A stretch of DNA of 39,466 bases. It comes from a virus (Duplodnaviria; Heunggongvirae; Uroviricota; Caudoviricetes). Within the stretch, counting starts at the first letter, position 1. Each line of letters starts with the position of its first letter. Location of the stretch: the IMG/VR virus record IMGVR_UViG_2531839252_000006; one strand, given 5' to 3'. Made by a program: the position numbers and the translations under genes. Below the pieces are notes generated by a model, which worked only from the letters and a program-made list of their open reading frames with translations, made no database searches and was not told where the DNA came from. Positions 4,882 to 32,044 of the stretch are shown in pieces.

Positions 4882-4949
4882 GTTGGTTTTTCTCCACGGA
4901 TTTACTGACAACCGAAGCCCTGACTGTTCCCGCAGTTGGGGCTTCAACT

Positions 4950-23649: not shown

Positions 23650-24273
23650 TTAACGTGTGACCGCATTCAAAATGTTGTCTGCGATTGACTCTTCCTTGTG
23701 GCATTGCACGACCAGAGCGTCATACAGCGGCTTAACAGTGCGTGACCAGGTGGGTTGAGTAAGGTTTGGGATTAGCATCGTTACAGCGCGATATGCGGCG
23801 CTTGCTGGCATCCTGGAATAGCCGACTCCTTTGCATCTTCCGCACTCTTTCTCAACAACTCTCCCCCATTGCTCTGTTTTGGCTATATCAACCGCACGGC
23901 CTGTACCGTGGCAATCTCTGCATCTTGCGCCCGGCGTCGCGGCACTACGGCAATAATCCGCATAAGCGAATGTTGCGAGCACTTGCAGTACCTTTGCCTT
24001 AGTATTTCCTTCAAGCTTTGCAACGCCACGGTATTTCCCCGATACCTTGTGTGCAAATTGCATCAGATAGTTGATAGCCTTTTGTTTGTCGCTCTGGCTG
24101 AGTTCGTGCTTACCACAGAATGCAGCCATTCCGAATCCGGCTTGTGATTGCGCCATCCCCATAGCAGCCATCACATCAGTACCGGAAAGAGAGTCAGAAG
24201 CCGTAGCCCGTGGTGAGTCGCTCATCATCGGGCTTTTTGGCGAATGAAATTTAGCTACACTTTCGAGTCTCAT
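23650..24273 (-). CDS. Q: Late-gene antiterminator Q (lambda type), 207 aa.
   Basis: Translation MRLESVAKFHSPKSPMMSDSPRATASDS ... with zinc-binding cysteines (CRDCHGTG ... CGRCKG) matches remembered lambda Q, same length. Confidence 0.9.
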   Translation of the reverse strand: MRLESVAKFHSPKSPMMSDSPRATASDSLSGTDVMAAMGMAQSQAGFGMAAFCGKHELSQSDKQKAINYLMQFAHKVSGKYRGVAKLEGNTKAKVLQVLATFAYADYCRSAATPGARCRDCHGTGRAVDIAKTEQWGRVVEKECGRCKGVGYSRMPASAAYRAVTMLIPNLTQPTWSRTVKPLYDALVVQCHKEESIADNILNAVTR

Positions 24274-24817: not shown

Positions 24818-25104
24818 GACTTAATCTTCCCCTCCTTCAGCAGTATCACCTGCGTCCTGATCACGCCTTCGAGGTGGTAAAGTCTGGCGTCTTTGTTGTC
24901 GAGATTATGGGTGCGTCGGTCGATTTCATCGTGACACGCGCTACAAGCCCATGCACCGATCAGGTCGTCAGGCTTCATTCCAGTTCCGCAAATTCCAGCC
25001 ATCCGGTAATGTGCCAGAACTGTAGTTTCAGGATTGCCATTGCATATGCCGTAAATACGTACCTGGCATTCTCTGCCGCGCGCTTCTTTGCGTAGGTTAG
25101 CCAT
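24814..25104 (-). CDS. DUF1364-family (YbcO-like) nin-region protein, 96 aa.
   Basis: Cys/His-rich small protein; start chosen at the ATG at 25104 (AAGGAAA 7 nt upstream) rather than the GTG at 25125. Confidence 0.55.
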   Translation of the reverse strand: MANLRKEARGRECQVRIYGICNGNPETTVLAHYRMAGICGTGMKPDDLIGAWACSACHDEIDRRTHNLDNKDARLYHLEGVIRTQVILLKEGKIKS

Positions 25105-25444
25105 TGTGATTTTCCTTTTCGTCACATTTGCATTTGCAACATTCCATATGGTATGGGAATGAGCTATCCAGTTCGGTAAACCATTCCCTGCATTCAGGGC
25201 AATACAAAACCTCCCATGGAACTCCGTATTCCGTTATCCATTCGAGGACCTGCTTTGTCATTGGAATTGGCGGTATTGCTGAAACATCGTAATTTTTTAT
25301 GGATAATTCTTTCAAAGCCATGTCGTAACGATGCTGAACTGTCGAAAGGTGTCGATTTGTTATGACTAGCTGGCGTCTTAACTGGTAATTGGCTTCGATT
25401 AAATCGTTAATCCTTTTTCCTGGATGGGAAAGTGTTTTCATCAT
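25097..25444 (-). CDS. Hypothetical nin-region protein, 115 aa, Cys-rich C-terminus.
   Basis: Intact ORF with GAGG upstream; CPECREW ... CCKCKC motifs suggest metal binding. Confidence 0.5.
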   Translation of the reverse strand: MMKTLSHPGKRINDLIEANYQLRRQLVITNRHLSTVQHRYDMALKELSIKNYDVSAIPPIPMTKQVLEWITEYGVPWEVLYCPECREWFTELDSSFPYHMECCKCKCDEKENHNG

Positions 25445-25610
25445 CTTCTTCCTCGTACATTGAGCTATTCGGATCGCTCATCAGTTCTGCGCAGCAATCG
25501 GAGCACACGTGAACTTCCAGCACATGCAGCTTCTGACCGCAGTTAGCGCACGTTAAAGCCCGCTCGACGCTTTCTTTCTGGTATTGAAGAGATTGGGATG
25601 GACTAAGCAT
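25407..25610 (-). CDS. ninF: NinF-like protein.
   Basis: [36 protein letters not shown] matches remembered lambda NinF. Confidence 0.7.
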   Translation of the reverse strand: MLSPSQSLQYQKESVERALTCANCGQKLHVLEVHVCSDCCAELMSDPNSSMYEEEDDENTFPSRKKD

Positions 25611-26010
25611 GGCTTTCACCATTAAAAAGTCGCTTGTAAGCATCAATGTCTCGTTTTGCTTCACCAAGCTTTCGTCTTAATTCCATGTTTTCTGATTCAA
25701 GCTTTTCCATGTCTTGCTGGTATCGATCGCGGTGTTCTTTCCATGCTTTTCGATACGCCTTCATGTATGTCGTATTGGCCTTTCTCTTTGCCTGACGAAC
25801 TGCGTGGTGGTTTTTCACAAACCAGTCAGGGTCGTTAAATGCTGCTCTGGCGCATGTATACCAATAATTTGTTGCCTCCCTGTTTAGCCAATAAATACTG
25901 ATAAATGGCAACTGGATAGACACCATTTTTCGTTGAGACTCTTTCTCGCCAAACATGTGCCCTTTTTTGATGCTAAGGCCAAATCCAGGTTGAATTAAAA
26001 GCATTGTCAT
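25603..26010 (-). CDS. Hypothetical nin-region protein, 135 aa.
   Basis: ATG overlaps the ninE stop (ATGA); the start of the longer ORF track entry (26046) would overlap ninE. Confidence 0.5.
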
Positions 26011-26183
26011 TTCCTCGCACGATGTCTTAGCCACCGGATATCCCACAGGTGAGCCGTGTAATTGAAGGTTTTTACGTCAGATTCTTTTGGGATTGGCTTG
26101 CGTTTATTTCTGGAGCGTTTCGTTGGAAGGTATTTGCAGTTTTCGCAGATTATGTCGGTGATACTTCGTCGCTGTCGCCTCAT
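26007..26183 (-). CDS. ninE: NinE-like protein, 58 aa; not in the ORF track.
   Basis: Hand translation [58 protein letters not shown]; its ATG overlaps the ninB stop (ATGA). Confidence 0.65.
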
Positions 26184-26590
26184 TCATACCTCCTGTCGGT
26201 AAATCTGACACCCTGACCAATAGCCCAGGCTGTTGTGTACTCGATCAGACTTGCCATACGCTTCACGCTCATCTGTGCGCTACTCTCCCGAATGTTGACG
26301 AATTCGCCTTCAAGGCCGGGCAAAACATCAGCTTCCTGTTTTGTTGCCACTGCATGACCGCTGATCAACAAAACCTTCCATTGTTCTGGTTTTAACCATT
26401 TATCGCACCATTGAACCTGACGAGCGATATCCGCCAGCATCGCGTGAAATTTTGCGTTCTGGTCAAGATTTCGCTTGTAGTCAGTAATGCGGATGGTGAC
26501 TGGCTTGTCTTTATCGAGAGGAGTTGAGAGGATGGCATTTATTGCGGCTTGCTGTTGTTGCTTACTTCGGAGGAAGATTGTTTGCTTCAT
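26180..26590 (-). CDS. ninB: NinB (Orf-family recombination mediator), 136 aa.
   Basis: Size and position at the start of the nin region; similarity to lambda NinB from memory. Confidence 0.75.
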
Positions 26591-26592
26591 CG

Positions 26593-26907
26593 TTACTCCT
26601 TCACTTTGACTCCGGCAGCGCGGATGTTTTCCTCATAAGCATCCATTGCATCACCGAAGCCATTGGAATAATCAACAGTAAACCCTTTGGCTAATGCTTC
26701 TCTGCTGTCGATAAACTTTGGCGCGGTTATTTCAATAGCTGCTCGCGATGCCTGCCATAAAGCCCACCACTCATTTAAGGAGTGACGAATATCCATGCTT
26801 GAAAATGCGAAGTACCTATCACCATTTCTTGCCTCGGTTATCATCTCGAATGGTAATCTCAATTTTTTGGCAACGTATTCCTCAAACTTCTTTCTTGATT
26901 CGTCCAT
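26593..26907 (-). CDS. Hypothetical protein, 104 aa.
   Basis: Intact ORF in the early-right operon between helicase and ninB. Confidence 0.5.
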   Translation of the reverse strand: MDESRKKFEEYVAKKLRLPFEMITEARNGDRYFAFSSMDIRHSLNEWWALWQASRAAIEITAPKFIDSREALAKGFTVDYSNGFGDAMDAYEENIRAAGVKVKE

Positions 26908-26918
26908 ATCAATCCCCG

Positions 26919-27119
26919 TTATGACAGGTTAATTTTCACCCAACCCTTCCCACGCACATTTGCAACAAGCCCTTTCTTTCTCAGGTATTGCATACGGCGA
27001 TCGATGGTTTCGATATACATTCCATTGCTCCGCCATTTAAGCCAGATATCAAAAACAGGTGTTGGTCTTTCACTCAGCATTGAAAGAATGTTTTGATCTA
27101 ATTTTTCGTACTTGCTCAC
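26919..27119 (-). CDS. Hypothetical small protein, 66 aa (possibly a winged-helix DNA binder).
   Basis: Intact ORF; basic C-terminus. Confidence 0.45.
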   Translation of the reverse strand: MSKYEKLDQNILSMLSERPTPVFDIWLKWRSNGMYIETIDRRMQYLRKKGLVANVRGKGWVKINLS

Positions 27120-27442
27120 AAATACCCTCTCTCACTTAATCGCGCCCACGCTTCGTTAAACTCTTCTCGGGTTGCGCCGGATTTTCTTTCTTCAAACATC
27201 ACGCATTCGCTGATGTCTCCCCATGACTTTGGTCGCTTTTCAGCGAACAGATCATCCCATTCGAATACCCAGCGGCCTGATTTTCGGTAGTGGTAAATGG
27301 TCAGCCATGTTGTGCTGTTCGCTGGATACCCATAGAGAACTTCGACTTTTTGATCACGGTCTTTATGCTTTTTCAGAAGGATAAAGCCAGCAACCAGCGA
27401 AGCTCCGGCAAGAATGATGATTGGAATTTGCCAGTCAGCCAC
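27116..27442 (-). CDS. Hypothetical membrane protein, 108 aa (GTG start, N-terminal transmembrane helix).
   Basis: N-terminus IPIIILAGASLVAGFILL is hydrophobic; overlaps neighbouring genes by 4-8 nt. Confidence 0.5.
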   Translation of the reverse strand: MADWQIPIIILAGASLVAGFILLKKHKDRDQKVEVLYGYPANSTTWLTIYHYRKSGRWVFEWDDLFAEKRPKSWGDISECVMFEERKSGATREEFNEAWARLSERGYL

Positions 27443-27518
27443 ACTTCCCTCTCCCCCAAATAAAAAGGCCTGCGATTACCAGCAGACCTGTTATTAGCTC
27501 AGTGATGTAGATGGTCAT
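27435..27518 (-). CDS. Possible 27-aa hydrophobic peptide ([27 protein letters not shown]), coupled to flanking genes.
   Basis: Its ATG overlaps the upstream stop (ATGA) and its stop overlaps the downstream GTG start; a single transmembrane-like segment. Confidence 0.25.
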   Translation of the reverse strand: MTIYITELITGLLVIAGLFIWGRGKCG

Positions 27519-27784
27519 TGCTTCATCTCCCTTTCCATTTCATCAATGTCAACGTCATCAGGAAGATGGGAGCAATACGCCGCTATACCATGATGATTTA
27601 TCTCATACCCTTTGAACGTTACCATCTGATGCGTAATCTCAACTTCGTTCAGGAATCCGTCATCGCATAACTGCCTGGCTATTTTCGATTTGGTCTGGAT
27701 TATTGGTAGTGCCTGTTCTTTCAAAGCGCATGATATTTGTGCATCCCATGCCTTTTCGAGAATGGCTAATTGTTTTTTATTCAT
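27515..27784 (-). CDS. Hypothetical protein, 89 aa.
   Basis: Intact ORF immediately downstream of the helicase gene. Confidence 0.5.
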
Positions 27785-29156
27785 ACGTCAGCCCCTTGTG
27801 CATATCGTCTGCCACGCGCAGCAGGTGCATTTGATGCTGTGCAAATCTGTCTGGCTTCATCCTGGTCACATGCAACAAAGTGTCCGTTGCAGAACCGCTG
27901 GTAAACCGTACCAAGCGAGCCAAAACGGTTTTTCGTCACAATGATTTCAGCAAAGGGCGCGGCGCTACTGTTCTCGTCATATACCGCTTCCCGATAGAGC
28001 ATGATGATTGAGTCTGCGTCCTGCTCAATGCTTCCTGAATCACGCAAATCTGCGTTTGTCGGGCGTTTGTTTGGTCGCTTCTCAACATCGCGTGAAAGCT
28101 GGCTTAGGGAGATAACAGGCGTTTTCAGGTCTTTCGCCATCGCCTTCAGGCTTCCGGAGATGTGAGCAATTGCAAGGTCGTTGCGGTCTGCTTTCGGCTT
28201 CTCAATCAGGCCAAGATAATCCGCCATGATGAGTGACAGGTTTGGATTTTCCTGTTTGTGCCGTTCTGCGATTGAGCGAATTTCTTCGACCGATAACCGC
28301 GAGGCATCGACTACCCATACATCCAAATCTGCAAGCTGACTCATGCCGTTAGCAACACGCGCCCAGCCTTCGTCATCCATCGATGCAGGATTTCGCAGCA
28401 CGCTAACCACATCCTCCCGGCGTTGGCAATACTTCGCTCTGCAATCTGCAATGCGCTCATTTCCATTGAGAAAATCAATACTCCGCGCCGGACGTCAGAA
28501 CCAGGAATAACACGACTTGCAACGCCTTCGGCAATCTTCAGCGCCAGTTCGGTTTTCCCCATACCAGGACGAGCGGCGATAATCACCAGGTCTTCTGCGT
28601 TCATCCCTCCGGTGATTGCGTCAAGTTCTTCGATTCCGGTCTTCAGGGTATCTGACTCTTCTCCGTTCCTCAGACGCCTGTCAAGCGTGTCAGTGTAGTC
28701 AGTGATGATTTCCCCTAACCGTACAGGTTTAACCTCGTCACGGGGCTTTCTGATAGCTGAAAGACGCTTTACAAGTTCATCCATCGCCTGACTCGATGCG
28801 TCGATGGTTCCGCTCTGAATTGGTTCACGCATTTCATCCATGATTTCCAGCACCAGACGGCGGTGATAGTTATCCGCGACCATTCCAGCATATCCCTTCA
28901 GGTTTGCGGCACTCGGGCAGTTTTTGCTGGTCATCAGGATTGACGTGAAATGCTCCTCTCCGCACTCCTCGGCAACCATCAGCGCATCGATTAGGTTTCT
29001 GTTTCTCGCCTGCTTGCGGATAACCTCGAAGGCTTTCCTGTAGAGCGGAATTGAAAACGCTTCCGGCTCCAGCGTTGCCAGAACGTCGCTGGCGGTTGGA
29101 GTTAATCCACCAATCAGCAGGCCACCGATAACGCTCGCTTCGATATCCTGTCTCAT
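27781..29156 (-). pseudogene. DnaB-family replicative helicase (P22 gene 12 equivalent), split into two ORFs by a frameshift near 28400-28420.
   Basis: ORF 28341-29156 carries Walker A ([12 protein letters not shown]) and [21 protein letters not shown]; ORF 27781-28410 in another frame carries the downstream helicase motifs ([42 protein letters not shown]). Combined length about 458 codons. Confidence 0.8.
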
Positions 29157-29974
29157 GCAATTCCCCTGTCTGCAAACTTCCCTTCACGAACTCCCGTTAA
29201 CGAATCTTCTCTCAGCAGGTAATCAAAATCAGCCGTCCAGCCCGTGTCGTTGTCTCCGAAGTAAAACGGCTTGGCCTGATGCACAAACGCCCTGACATAC
29301 GCCCTGAAACCGTCCACGTTTGGCGTTTTCAGTTGCGGGATGATTTTTTTCAGGCGGCGTTTGCGTTTCTCGTTGACCGCAACAGCGTGTGGAAGTCTGT
29401 CACCGACTTCGGTGTTGTAGGCGTTCAGGAAGGATTCGTAGTCGATTCGTTCTGCCTTGCGACGTTCAGGTTTAACCTGCCCATCGCCGCCCCCGTTAGG
29501 GGGTAAGGGGGTATTTGTATTTATTGTCTTTTGTATATTGTCTTTTGTGTTTAGCTGACTTGGCTTATACCCATTAGCTGACTTGGCTAATGTTTTATTA
29601 GCTGTTTTAGCTAATGTTAAGCTGTCCTGGCTAATCCACTGCGAAACCACCTTGTTCACTCCGATTTTCACGCCATCAGCAATGAGGAATTTACGCTCAA
29701 TAAGCTGGCGCTTGGCAGCGCAAACATGAGTGTGATGAATACCTGTCATGGCTGCTATCTGCGTGTTTGTGAGTCGATCCATCGGCTTATTGAATCCGTA
29801 TGTCTTGCGCATGATAGCGAGCATCACCTTCAACTGCCGGACGGTTAAATCAGCCATCAGCAGACTGTCGGTAATCTCGTTAGCAACGCGCATGAAACCA
29901 TCTTCGGTATCTGCCACGCGATGCTCCACGACCTCAAGTTGAGGCCTGTAATCAGCTAACTTAACGACGCCCAT
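29153..29974 (-). CDS. Replication initiator, lambda O / P22 gene 18 family, 273 aa, containing the origin.
   Basis: Size and position upstream of the helicase; iterons and an AT-rich tract lie inside the coding sequence. Confidence 0.8.
29511..29640. repeat. Origin of replication: iterons (tagctgacttggct x2 plus degenerate copies) next to an AT-rich tract with attgtcttttgt x2, embedded in the O-like gene.
   Basis: Direct repeats seen at 29551-29636 and the AT-rich repeat at 29511-29550; same arrangement as lambda ori within O. Confidence 0.65.
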
Positions 29975-30809: not shown

Positions 30810-31460
30810 ATGAATACACAACTGATGGGTGAGCGTATTCGCGCTCGCAGAAAAGAACTCAAGATTAGGCAGGCTGCCCTTGGCAAGATGGTTGGCGTGT
30901 CTAATGTTGCTATTTCCCAATGGGAGCGTTCTGAAACTGAGCCCAATGGCGAAAACCTATTGGCCTTAGCCAAGGCTTTGCAGTGCTCCCCTGATTACTT
31001 GTTGAAAGGAGAAGATAGTCTTTCAAACATTGCCTATCACAGCAGGCATGATCCAAGAGGTTCGTATCCTCTAATTAGTTGGGTAAGCGCAGGATGTTGG
31101 ATGGAAGCTGTAGAGCCATATCATAAGCGTGCAATAGATAACTGGTACGATACAACCGTAGATTGTTCAGAAGATTCGTTTTGGCTGGACGTAAAGGGTG
31201 ATTCGATGACGGCTCCAGCCGGTCTTAGCATCCCGGAAGGGATGATAATACTAGTCGATCCTGAAGTAGAACCTCGTAATGGGAAGCTGGTAGTGGCAAA
31301 GCTCGAAGGAGAAAACGAGGCAACTTTCAAGAAGTTAGTTATTGATGCTGGCAGAAGGTTTCTAAAACCACTTAACCCACAATATCCGATGATTGAGATC
31401 AACGGGAACTGCAAAATCATCGGTGTAGTTGTCGATGCAAAAATAGCAAACCTTCCATAA
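30810..31460 (+). CDS. c2: Prophage repressor C2 (CI-type, LexA-like S24 autopeptidase fold), 216 aa.
   Basis: Translation MNTQLMGERIRARRKELKIRQAALGKMVGVSNVAISQWERSE ... GDSM ... matches remembered P22 C2; same length. Confidence 0.9.
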   Translation: MNTQLMGERIRARRKELKIRQAALGKMVGVSNVAISQWERSETEPNGENLLALAKALQCSPDYLLKGEDSLSNIAYHSRHDPRGSYPLISWVSAGCWMEAVEPYHKRAIDNWYDTTVDCSEDSFWLDVKGDSMTAPAGLSIPEGMIILVDPEVEPRNGKLVVAKLEGENEATFKKLVIDAGRRFLKPLNPQYPMIEINGNCKIIGVVVDAKIANLP

Positions 31461-31771: not shown

Positions 31772-32044
31772 ATGACAGTAGTCATTACATATCTGGCTGA
31801 CGATAACGCCAGAAATAGCCGCAGAGCACGCAGACAGGCTCAACGTGAACAGGCAATGCAAGAGCAGCGACTGGCGCGAAAGATTGCGCTAAAGCTCTCT
31901 GGTTGCGTCAGAGCAGATAAAGCAGCATCACTCGGAAGCCTTCGCTGTAAGGAAGAAGATGAACGCAGTGGAAGTATTTGCCTGCCAAACGTAGCTCTTT
32001 ACGCGGCAGGCTACAGGAAATCAAAACAACTGACGGCGAGGTAA
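31772..32044 (+). CDS. N: N-type transcription antiterminator, 90 aa.
   Basis: Arg-rich N-terminal motif (NARNSRRARRQAQREQ) and first gene downstream of PL/nutL; GGAGG 5 nt upstream. Confidence 0.7.
   Translation: MTVVITYLADDNARNSRRARRQAQREQAMQEQRLARKIALKLSGCVRADKAASLGSLRCKEEDERSGSICLPNVALYAAGYRKSKQLTAR

Follow-up and report, generated by a model that had tools for sequence, protein, structure and literature searches.

The interval between the helicase gene and ninB of a lambdoid prophage is probably a mosaic nin-region segment carrying NinA and tR2

The DNA analyzed here is a 39466-nt viral stretch (IMG/VR record IMGVR_UViG_2531839252_000006), referred to as the window, and the interval under study comprises its positions 26593–27784. 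With a probability of about 80%, we consider this interval to be the part nearest the promoter in the nin region of a P22-like/lambdoid prophage, composed of mosaic modules that would be expressed as delayed-early, N-dependent genes, and not a system. Because its 27-codon ORF corresponds in sequence to lambda NinA with the classic tR2 terminator, the interval is ordinary and points to no new system. Its architecture is that of ordinary lambdoid nin regions, and every product is already present in databases.

Gene order and coding potential

Pfam searches of the window identified a CI-type repressor, Phage_rep_O, DnaB, NinB, NinE, YbcO, RusA and antiterminator Q. The gene order on the minus strand is O (Phage_rep_O; 29153–29974), a DnaB-type replicative helicase (27781–29156, stop at 27781), the interval, the recombination mediator gene ninB (orf; 26180–26590, Pfam NinB, E = 7.8e-55), ninE through rusA, and Q (23650–24273), which confirms the earlier placement of the interval between a helicase gene and ninB. 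Both this position between the replication genes and Q and the linkage of successive small genes through overlapping stops and starts are those of nin regions, whose genes are closely packed with ATGA overlaps in all lambdoids (PMC8022706). The sar RNA of the P22 immI region is the sole Rfam match in the whole window and is distant from the interval. With a GC content of 41–48%, the interval is similar to the remaining nin region and slightly lower than the helicase gene, which is not distinctive. An apparent 1-nt deletion near position 28409 divides the helicase gene into two ORFs, and this copy may therefore be a decaying prophage from which the interval is not productively expressed.

All five ORFs described in the first-pass annotation were found on the minus strand at the limits given there, and their tight coupling was evident at every junction. 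The 89-aa ORF (27515–27784), an accessory gene between the helicase stop and NinA/tR2, overlaps both the helicase gene and the 27-aa ORF (27435–27518) by ATGA, as read from the sequence. The 27-aa ORF shares 8 nt (GTGGCTGA) with the 108-aa ORF (27116–27442, GTG start), with its stop located 5 nt inside the latter gene. The 108-aa and 66-aa ORFs (the latter 26919–27119, GTG start) overlap by GTGA, and 11 nt containing GGGGA separate the 66-aa ORF from the 104-aa ORF (26593–26907). Finally, the 104-aa ORF ends 2 nt ahead of ninB (TAA-CG-ATG), with AAGGAG within its final codons. All these junctions are of the tight type usual for nin regions. The report of two products with hydrophobic N-termini was also upheld: the maximum mean Kyte-Doolittle hydropathy over 19 residues was 2.04 for the 27-aa product (residues 2–20) and 2.28 for the 108-aa product (residues 5–23), and below 0.5 for the 89-, 66- and 104-aa products.

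Each of the five products is an exact match to a public protein, and each belongs to a PHROG family without assigned function. The four larger ORFs match their PHROG families from end to end (E = 1e-34 to 4e-75), and alignments contain homologues of down to 40–50% identity that retain invariant core residues; we therefore regard these four as real genes. An explanation of the ORFs, in part or as a whole set, as chance frames without coding function is hardly credible. The lack of a match to any function-bearing family or solved structure would be in line with such frames, but the full-length PHROG matches argue against them, as do the invariant cores and hydrophobic N-termini of the diverged homologues, a confident AF2 model for the domain of the 108-aa protein, and the presence of a Shine-Dalgarno sequence or a stop/start overlap at each junction. 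For the four larger ORFs this explanation is effectively refuted, leaving NinA alone to be considered.

The NinA mini-ORF and the tR2 terminator

None of the products had been recognizable at first sight, a statement that does not extend to the 27-aa ORF. Judged by its sequence, this ORF is the lambda NinA mini-ORF with tR2 embedded in it: 74 of 76 nt are identical to lambda 40567–40642 in the alignment, and the two differences are silent in NinA. The product belongs to phrog_5907 (E = 1.8e-19) and is identical to the protein of gene 45 of Shigella phage Sf6, described as "similar to phage 21 NinA." The Sf6 record annotates the same element as gene 45, tR2 and boundary sequence bsq6, and labels the tR2 sequence "terminator, homology to phage lambda tR2." Clear homology to nin genes of known function, which had been named as evidence against an exclusion or host-takeover role, was thus found for one of the five ORFs (NinA/tR2) and not for the other four.

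The terminator scan and the Sf6 annotation place tR2 at 27457–27489 on the minus strand. Its hairpin consists of an 8-bp stem (AGGUCUGC/GCAGGCCU) with five GC pairs and an 8-nt loop, followed by the U-tract UUUUUAUUU; the sequence 3' of the loop and stem in the scan reads TTTTTATTT, and the arrangement is that of an intrinsic terminator. A C>U change in the 5' arm of the stem produces one G.U pair, and the predicted folding energy is -13.0 kcal/mol vs. -15.7 kcal/mol for lambda, 2.7 kcal/mol weaker here. The hairpin is the sole helix retained in the centroid fold.

To collect further copies of NinA/tR2, viral contigs were scanned with a 14-nt pattern, and chance matches were removed by demanding a terminator downstream. 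The reading frame, 24–31 codons long, is uninterrupted in each of the 68 copies, and the copies share its layout: a place in the pR operon bounded by the replication genes and ninB, and an ORF start overlapping the upstream stop. The flanks are unrelated: upstream lie Ren, the helicase directly, the 89-aa gene or others, and downstream ninB, the 108-aa gene, another gene with a hydrophobic start or others. The 76-nt element at 27443–27518 on the minus strand, which runs from the ATG through tR2 to GGGGGAGAGGGAAGT and is common to lambda 40567–40642 and Sf6 bsq6, is a conserved linker that joins differing upstream and downstream modules; its end supplies the Shine-Dalgarno sequence for the gene that follows.

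Among 67 linker copies there are 18 distinct 70-mers. Eight variant types fall in nt 15–28, upstream of the hairpin, and the 16 stem positions of tR2 show only one G.U-compatible C>T and one C>A type. In codons 11–20 of NinA the synonymous sites are frozen except for this C>T change, which indicates that NinA is conserved mainly by constraint on the RNA. A functional membrane micro-protein, such as a small toxic or regulatory peptide, would be more than a by-product of the terminator or a bridge for ribosomes, and we consider it unlikely for NinA. It would agree with the open frame in 68/68 copies (24–31 codons), with the Shine-Dalgarno sequence GGGAG located 8 nt upstream of the start, with the activity of this start site in lambda constructs (PMC4824070), with five synonymous vs. 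three conservative non-synonymous variant types upstream of the hairpin, and with a hydrophobic core followed by basic residues that resembles a membrane anchor. However, besides the frozen synonymous sites, the hydrophobicity derives in part from translation of the GC-rich stem and the U-tract (LFI from CUUUUUAUU), and the C-terminus varies with the next module and with the length of the T/G run (L13Q, G22E and frameshifted tails occur). In addition, fusions to the 108-aa protein exist, and NinA is rarely called as a gene (nine contigs vs. at least 1000 for the neighboring 89-aa gene). A hydrophobic 27-aa peptide in this position should be recognized as lambda NinA/tR2 before it is pursued as a toxin.

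Products and assortment of the accessory genes

Comparison of the five products with Pfam, NCBIfam, PADLOC and PDB sequences gave nothing significant, and PDB searches with the profiles of three of the families gave no match. Within PADLOC there was no match below E = 0.015 and none over the full length, and no Pfam match reached the curated cut-offs, so that these searches provided no indication of defense or exclusion. The four larger proteins accordingly stay without assigned function, as first described. Structure prediction, which had been proposed as a check, led to no functional match and depicts the 108-aa product as a membrane-anchored domain without a PDB neighbor.

The 89-aa product is soluble and acidic (pI 5.2) and belongs to phrog_2239 (E = 2.8e-63). 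The exact protein is present on at least 1000 contigs; it is also found in 115 phage records, those of Stx2a phages and phi24B among them, and is invariably labeled "hypothetical" there. Its family is small (25 clusters, 25 invariant residues), and the named matches are all from Enterobacterales. Homology to lambda Ren was rejected, as a BLASTP comparison yielded nothing at E ≤ 100. A relationship between the 89-aa and 66-aa products as small winged-helix proteins was dismissed at an hhalign probability of 1%, and a winged-helix assignment of the 89-aa product is wholly unsupported.

The 108-aa protein, a homologue of Sf6 gene 46, is a predicted single-pass membrane protein. A variable N-terminal transmembrane helix (residues 5–23) is followed by a KKHKDRDQK stretch and by a strongly conserved C-terminal domain of approximately 75 residues with a beta-beta-beta-beta-alpha order. 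The predicted topology is N-out, C-in, with residues 31–108 on the cytoplasmic side. The invariant surface of this domain reads YGYP...WLT.YH.R...FEWDDLF...RP. The domain is found in temperate lambdoid phages, in virulent siphophages and in Goslar, a nucleus-forming jumbo phage; its relatives in virulent phages fit a role in the lytic cycle.

The 66-aa product, a homologue of Sf6 gene 47, is basic (pI 10.2) and belongs to phrog_7185 (E = 1.2e-34). Among 1.84 billion proteins, only 19 representatives were found. Residues Y4, D8, I11, D40, R42, Q44, L46, G59, and W60 are conserved. Sub-threshold matches to Rrf2 (best E = 0.025, 5/13 members), LexA_DNA_bind (0.03), HTH_Crp_2 (0.067), MarR_2 (0.071) and HxlR suggest that it is possibly a winged-helix protein; a PDB sequence search and a PDB profile search gave no match for it.

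The 104-aa ORF, related to Sf6 gene 48 and 933W L0091, encodes a helical protein and is an intragenic mosaic with reassorting cassettes. A protein to which PGAP gives the name "phiTE_015 family" shares 96% identity with its product. PF26207 is precomputed on all listed homologues, including the 97%-identical representative of its own 90% cluster; this link runs via the annotation of the homologues, and PF26207 and the phiTE_015 name may refer to one family or to two. A literature search for phiTE_015 and PF26207 returned no papers. We raise only as a speculative proposal that the 108-aa protein (Sf6 gp46 family) is a host-directed effector, with a single-pass inner-membrane anchor and a cytoplasmic domain, and that the 104-aa cassettes are specificity determinants in an arms race between phage and host or between phages.

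Among 5426 complete E. coli genomes, one has the complete arrangement of the interval and 2075 have parts of it. Loci with the 89-aa gene may have or lack the 108-aa gene (it is missing from locus L090), and the 108-aa gene in turn may or may not be accompanied by the 66- and 104-aa genes; it lies directly before ninB in loci L022 and L095. Genes of the 104-aa type are located directly upstream of ninB in at least 12 loci. In all five loci of the sample that hold the 66-aa gene, it immediately follows the 108-aa gene, and the products of these two genes could therefore work together. As judged from these arrangements, the modules appear to assort independently around the conserved tR2 linker and the genes form no unit; the "five-gene block" does not stand as a functional entity, since its modules occur separately and in other combinations.

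Expression and comparison with lambdoid phages

A promoter scan of the interval, covering sigma-70 consensus sites only, found two sites, vs. 3.6 expected by chance; a weak or non-canonical promoter could still lie inside it. As no promoter signal exceeds chance and an N-type antiterminator (Pfam N_peptide; 31772–32044, plus strand) is encoded in the window, expression of the interval is likely to be delayed-early and N-dependent. RNA polymerase started at pR would halt at tR2 unless modified by this antiterminator. The three genes past tR2 would then be delayed-early genes of the lytic cycle, silent in the repressed prophage, and the 89-aa gene would be so to a lesser degree. Translation would be handed from gene to gene via the overlapping stop and start codons, and the NinA ORF would bridge the terminator and keep the chain of translation unbroken. 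In lambda, translation initiates at the NinA start site, and tR2, located 30 bp further on, retains most of its termination efficiency of about 0.9 (PMC4824070). We infer termination at the present tR2 variant and N-dependent read-through from these data, from the lambda literature (PMC10695390) and from the N_peptide-family gene.

This arrangement bears on a proposal that builds on the first-pass annotation, in which the five ORFs would be one cassette for exclusion or host takeover, possibly expressed from the prophage, with membrane proteins that act jointly. The tight translational coupling, the two hydrophobic products, the adjacency of the 108- and 66-aa genes in 5/5 loci with the 66-aa gene, and lambda ren, a gene in a comparable slot that is annotated as exclusion-related, all speak for this proposal. 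We nevertheless regard it as improbable. Such coupling is a general property of nin regions (PMC8022706), the modules are freely reshuffled (the whole set in 1/5426 genomes, with L022, L095, and L090 as exceptions to joint occurrence), there is no PADLOC match, and the NinA/tR2 linker, which lambda also has, accounts for one of the two "membrane proteins." That three genes are preceded by an N-suppressible terminator and show no promoter signal of their own beyond chance argues against exclusion expressed from the prophage and for roles in the lytic cycle. Based on their co-occurrence patterns, the four larger proteins are most likely dispensable accessory factors that act singly during lytic growth and modulate the host or a competitor.

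As a discovery the interval is of small value, its architecture being textbook for lambdoid genomes and all its products being in databases. The families of the 108- and 104-aa proteins occur commonly among enterobacterial phages, and selection clearly acts on them; the shuffling of cassettes in the 104-aa gene is typical of conflict genes, and the 108-aa domain combines a confident model with the absence of a known fold neighbor. Both are reasonable, though not urgent, candidates for a screen of accessory genes.

The interpretation as part of a nin region is in agreement with what is known from related phages. A high degree of mosaicism and terminators that N can suppress are features of lambdoid nin regions (PMC8022706; PMC5630979; PMC10695390). 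Their genes are non-essential and drawn from a pool of 30–50 (PMC5630979), and the nin region of lambda is dispensable for plaque formation (PMC10695390; PMC5630979). As in lambda (ren-ninA to ninI) and P22 (ninA, B, D, E, F, G, H, X, Y, Z), the interval is located between the replication genes and Q and consists of small genes in a chain of ATGA overlaps, whereas its module set (89, 108, 66, and 104 aa) is a rare combination, found in a single E. coli genome out of 5426.

A close counterpart is found in genes 45–48 of the P22-like phage Sf6 (AF547987/NC_005344), with DNA 98.7% identical over window positions 26735–27518. Genes 45, 46, and 47 correspond to the 27-, 108-, and 66-aa products at about 98–100%, and the gene order, the overlaps and the tR2/bsq6 annotation are the same. 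In contrast, the 89-aa gene is absent from Sf6, where the helicase stop directly abuts gene 45. Gene 48 is 68% identical overall to the 104-aa gene, having the N-terminal cassette alone in common and differing in the C-terminal cassette, and Sf6 has an additional gene 49 ahead of ninB. The labels "phiTE_015 family" and PF26207 are borne by close relatives of the 104-aa protein.

The NinA/tR2 element of lambda (40567–40647, ren to ninB) shares with the present one the ATGA overlap with the upstream gene, the hairpin, loop and U-tract, the Shine-Dalgarno run GGGGGAGAG and the place in the pR operon. It differs in lacking the C>U change in the 5' stem arm and in ending in KS vs. KCG, as the 108-aa gene follows here in place of ninB. 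On the upstream side, lambda has ren where the 89-aa gene is located here. The two genes occupy the same slot, directly after a replication gene, ATGA-linked to NinA and upstream of tR2, but share no sequence similarity. The earlier remark that lambda carries ren at this position therefore applies to the 89-aa gene only, and not to the 108-, 66-, and 104-aa genes, which lie between tR2 and ninB at a position that is empty in lambda.

Genomic setting and gene order

The window represents the genome of a P22-like/lambdoid phage or prophage. A match at 4882–4949 (plus strand) to sar, an antisense RNA from the immI (ant/arc/mnt) region of P22 (Rfam RF00262, 95.6 bits), marks the element as P22-like, and Pfam matches identify a CI-type repressor (30810–31460, plus strand), an N-type antiterminator (31772–32044, plus strand), replication protein O (29153–29974, minus strand) and antiterminator Q (23650–24273, minus strand), as well as NinE, YbcO and RusA. 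Together, these matches place the interval 26593–27784 at the beginning of the nin region in the early-right operon. Two further ORFs of this region, located between ninE and the YbcO/RusA genes, encode 147 aa (25603–26046, minus strand) and 115 aa (25097–25444, minus strand) and lack a Pfam match at E ≤ 0.001.

All interval genes read on the minus strand. The DnaB-type helicase gene (stop at 27781) is joined by ATGA to the 89-aa gene (27784–27515), and the latter, again by ATGA, to a 27-aa ORF (27518–27435) that overlaps the 108-aa gene (27442–27116, GTG start) by 8 nt (GTGGCTGA). A GTGA junction leads to the 66-aa gene (27119–26919, GTG start), and an 11-nt spacer with GGGGA precedes the 104-aa gene (26907–26593), which carries AAGGAG inside its final codons and runs through TAA-CG-ATG into ninB (26590–26180, minus strand; Pfam NinB, E = 7.8e-55). 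The first-pass annotation was exact in the coordinates and lengths of the interval ORFs, and the two products it credited with an N-terminal hydrophobic segment are the 27-aa and 108-aa products (Kyte-Doolittle 19-residue maxima of 2.04 and 2.28; below 0.5 for the other three). Its observation of these ORFs is confirmed, and its interpretation is partly supported. [quoted passage not shown]

The helicase gene itself (27781–29156, minus strand) is broken into two overlapping ORFs of 271 and 209 aa by a 1-base deletion near 28409 (GGATGT-GGTTAG, vs GGATGTCGGTTAG in E. coli NZ_CP195371, whose 1377-nt gene is intact), reflecting either a replication-defective prophage or a sequencing error.

The NinA/tR2 element

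By sequence comparison, the 27-aa ORF is identified as NinA/tR2 of lambda, a classic element known since 1982. Alignment of 27518–27443 with lambda 40567–40642 gives 74 of 76 identical positions, and gene 45 of phage Sf6, annotated as "similar to phage 21 NinA", is an identical ORF, inside which the Sf6 record marks bsq6, a boundary sequence, and a terminator with "homology to phage lambda tR2". This is the only interval feature with a recognizable function: the earlier statement that none of the proteins is recognizable fails for this ORF and stands for the other four, and homology to nin proteins of known function was likewise found for NinA/tR2 and for none of the four larger proteins. In lambda, the NinA ORF overlaps the ren stop at its start and the ninB start at its end, in both cases by ATGA. 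Translation is initiated at the lambda NinA start site in vivo, and tR2, 30 bp 3′ of the NinA AUG, retains most of its termination efficiency of ~0.9 (PMC4824070).

A terminator scan places the hairpin AGGTCTGC-TGGTAATC-GCAGGCCT, followed by TTTTTATTT, at 27489–27457, and this is the sole helix retained in the centroid fold. In the window, a C>U change at 27486 in the 5′ stem arm turns one G-C pair into G·U (ΔG −13.0 vs −15.7 kcal/mol in lambda), a variant present in 3 of the 67 surveyed copies only (window, L004, L114).

Viral contigs, reference phages and genomes of E. coli yielded 68 NinA/tR2 copies. Just 18 distinct 70-mers occur among the 67 gap-free copies. In these, substitutions at the 16 stem positions are limited to the G·U-compatible C>T of the window and one C>A, codons 11–20 have this same C>T as their only third-position change, and variation clusters at nt 15–28, 5′ of the hairpin (eight variant types, five synonymous and three conservative). 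Such a pattern is characteristic of a constraint at the RNA level, namely the terminator. The ORF is open in 68/68 copies (24–31 codons), and its C-terminal residues vary with the downstream module and with length changes in the T/G run. We consider a function of NinA as a peptide unlikely; rather, NinA would mainly ferry ribosomes over the terminator-containing spacer, leaving the translational chain unbroken.

NinA and the 108-aa protein form a single in-frame fusion in several genomes of E. coli, E. fergusonii and Salmonella (P0064–P0074, 133–149 aa; P0064 has 133 aa), presumably because the T/G runs that follow the hairpin changed in length. The fused product would carry two hydrophobic helices.

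The four larger proteins

Public proteins match all five products exactly, invariably under the label hypothetical, and PHROGs of unknown function take in all five. The 108-aa family has a hydrophobic, variable N-terminus and a strongly conserved domain, with invariant residues including Y37 G38 Y39 P40, W46 L47 T48, Y50 H51, R53, F60–F66 and R70 P71. From KKHKDRDQK, a basic segment that follows the helix, the positive-inside rule predicts that the protein is oriented N-out, C-in. The AF2 model (pLDDT 83.5; domain mostly 90–98 per 10-residue block, one block 85) consists of a TM helix, four strands and a helix. Structure prediction, proposed earlier as a check, gave a confident domain and no fold neighbor of assigned function: the BFVD matches are uncharacterized proteins of jumbo phage Goslar (A0A482GDX9, E = 2.8e-8) and Salmonella phage IME207 (A0A1B1W285). 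Domain identity is 36–54% over the jumbo phage and other Salmonella/E. coli phages, with 41–54% (tblastn) for records that include seszw, CF-SP1, S192 and HC6, which we take to be virulent siphophages. The family is therefore not restricted to temperate lambdoid phages, and its presence in presumably virulent phages points to a lytic-cycle role.

The 89- and 66-aa products each occur on at least 1000 contigs. The former belongs to a small family (25 clusters, 25 invariant positions) whose named matches are all from Enterobacterales; its gene is found in 115 phage records, among them those of Stx2a-converting phages and of phi24B, and family and structure searches gave no match. The 66-aa protein is basic (pI 10.2), has only 19 representatives in a library of 1.84 billion proteins and conserves the pattern KY.ELD..IL ... 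DRRLQALRKKGLI ... GKGW. Its matches to several winged-helix families all stayed below threshold, and a winged-helix fold is no more than a plausible guess.

Mosaicism extends into the 104-aa gene itself (loci L001, L002, L011, L027, L090). Three linkers of ~30 nt, near-identical in DNA between phages, encode its start (MDESRKQFEE), middle (WQASRAAIEI) and end (IRAAGVKVKE, with the ninB ribosome-binding site). Between them lie two segments of unrelated cassettes that reassort independently: A+alpha in the window, A+beta in Sf6, A+gamma in phi330, B+alpha in L027 and C+delta in L011.

Modular organization and expression

NinA/tR2 is a universal linker between independent modules. The upstream neighbor differs among the 68 copies: it may be Ren (96 aa), the 89-aa gene (window, L004, L090), a 458-aa helicase that directly precedes the element and shares the ...RRYAQGADV end of the window helicase, or another gene. 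Downstream lies ninB, which is the lambda arrangement, or the 108-aa gene, or a further GTGGCTGA-start gene whose product is hydrophobic at the N-terminus, or yet another gene. In L005 (2653–2859, minus strand; 68 aa) and in many viral loci (e.g., L009, L027, L033), NinA/tR2 is followed by a different small ORF that shares the GTGGCTGA start and likewise encodes a hydrophobic N-terminus (VAEFMLVALKCVGVGWIL.../VAELIFSALRILGAMWMV...). As hydrophobic-start ORFs recur there, the post-tR2 slot is repeatedly occupied by small membrane proteins.

Module co-occurrence was read from a tblastn search of all loci in which the window proteins served as queries. The 108-, 66- and 104-aa genes occur together in L001, L004, L005, L011 and L120; the 108-aa gene adjoins ninB directly in L022 and L095; 104-type genes lie just 5′ of ninB in at least 12 loci, whatever precedes them; and the 89-aa gene is found with the 108-aa gene in L004 and without it in L090. 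Module independence is qualified by the 66-aa gene, which was found only directly 3′ of the 108-aa gene (5/5 loci). Among 5426 finished E. coli genomes, NZ_CP195371 alone has the complete 1.4-kb arrangement (99.1%), and 2075 hold parts of it. The five-gene block described previously is not a conserved unit.

A sigma-70 scan found 2 promoter-like sites in 26000–28500, vs 3.6 expected. As tR2 precedes the 108-, 66- and 104-aa genes and the window encodes an N-type antiterminator, these three genes would be expressed only when antiterminated pR transcription reads through tR2, during lytic growth or induction. They would be silent in a repressed prophage, which argues against the suspected exclusion function if expressed in the lysogen; defence-system models (PADLOC) gave no match to the interval products. 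Lytic expression fits a general view in which fast-evolving phage accessory genes mostly target host defences or competitor viruses (bioRxiv 10.1101/2023.04.06.535777). The nin region is transcribed under N antitermination and is dispensable when Q is supplied (PMC10695390), and its non-essential genes are drawn from a pool of 30–50, about ten per phage (PMC5630979). We take the four larger proteins to be independent, dispensable, delayed-early accessory factors. Our confidence is high for the architecture and expression logic of the interval and low for any specific activity of these four proteins.

The interval is ordinary lambdoid architecture, already annotated (Sf6 genes 45–48 are relatives of the 27-, 108-, 66- and 104-aa products), and the remaining novelty lies in the 108-aa domain, with no known fold neighbor, and the cassette-shuffling 104-aa family. 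The earlier remark that lambda holds ren at this position applies to the 89-aa gene, which lies 5′ of tR2 and encodes a protein in which no similarity to Ren was found; it does not apply to the 108-, 66- and 104-aa genes, which in the window lie between tR2 and ninB, whereas lambda has nothing there.
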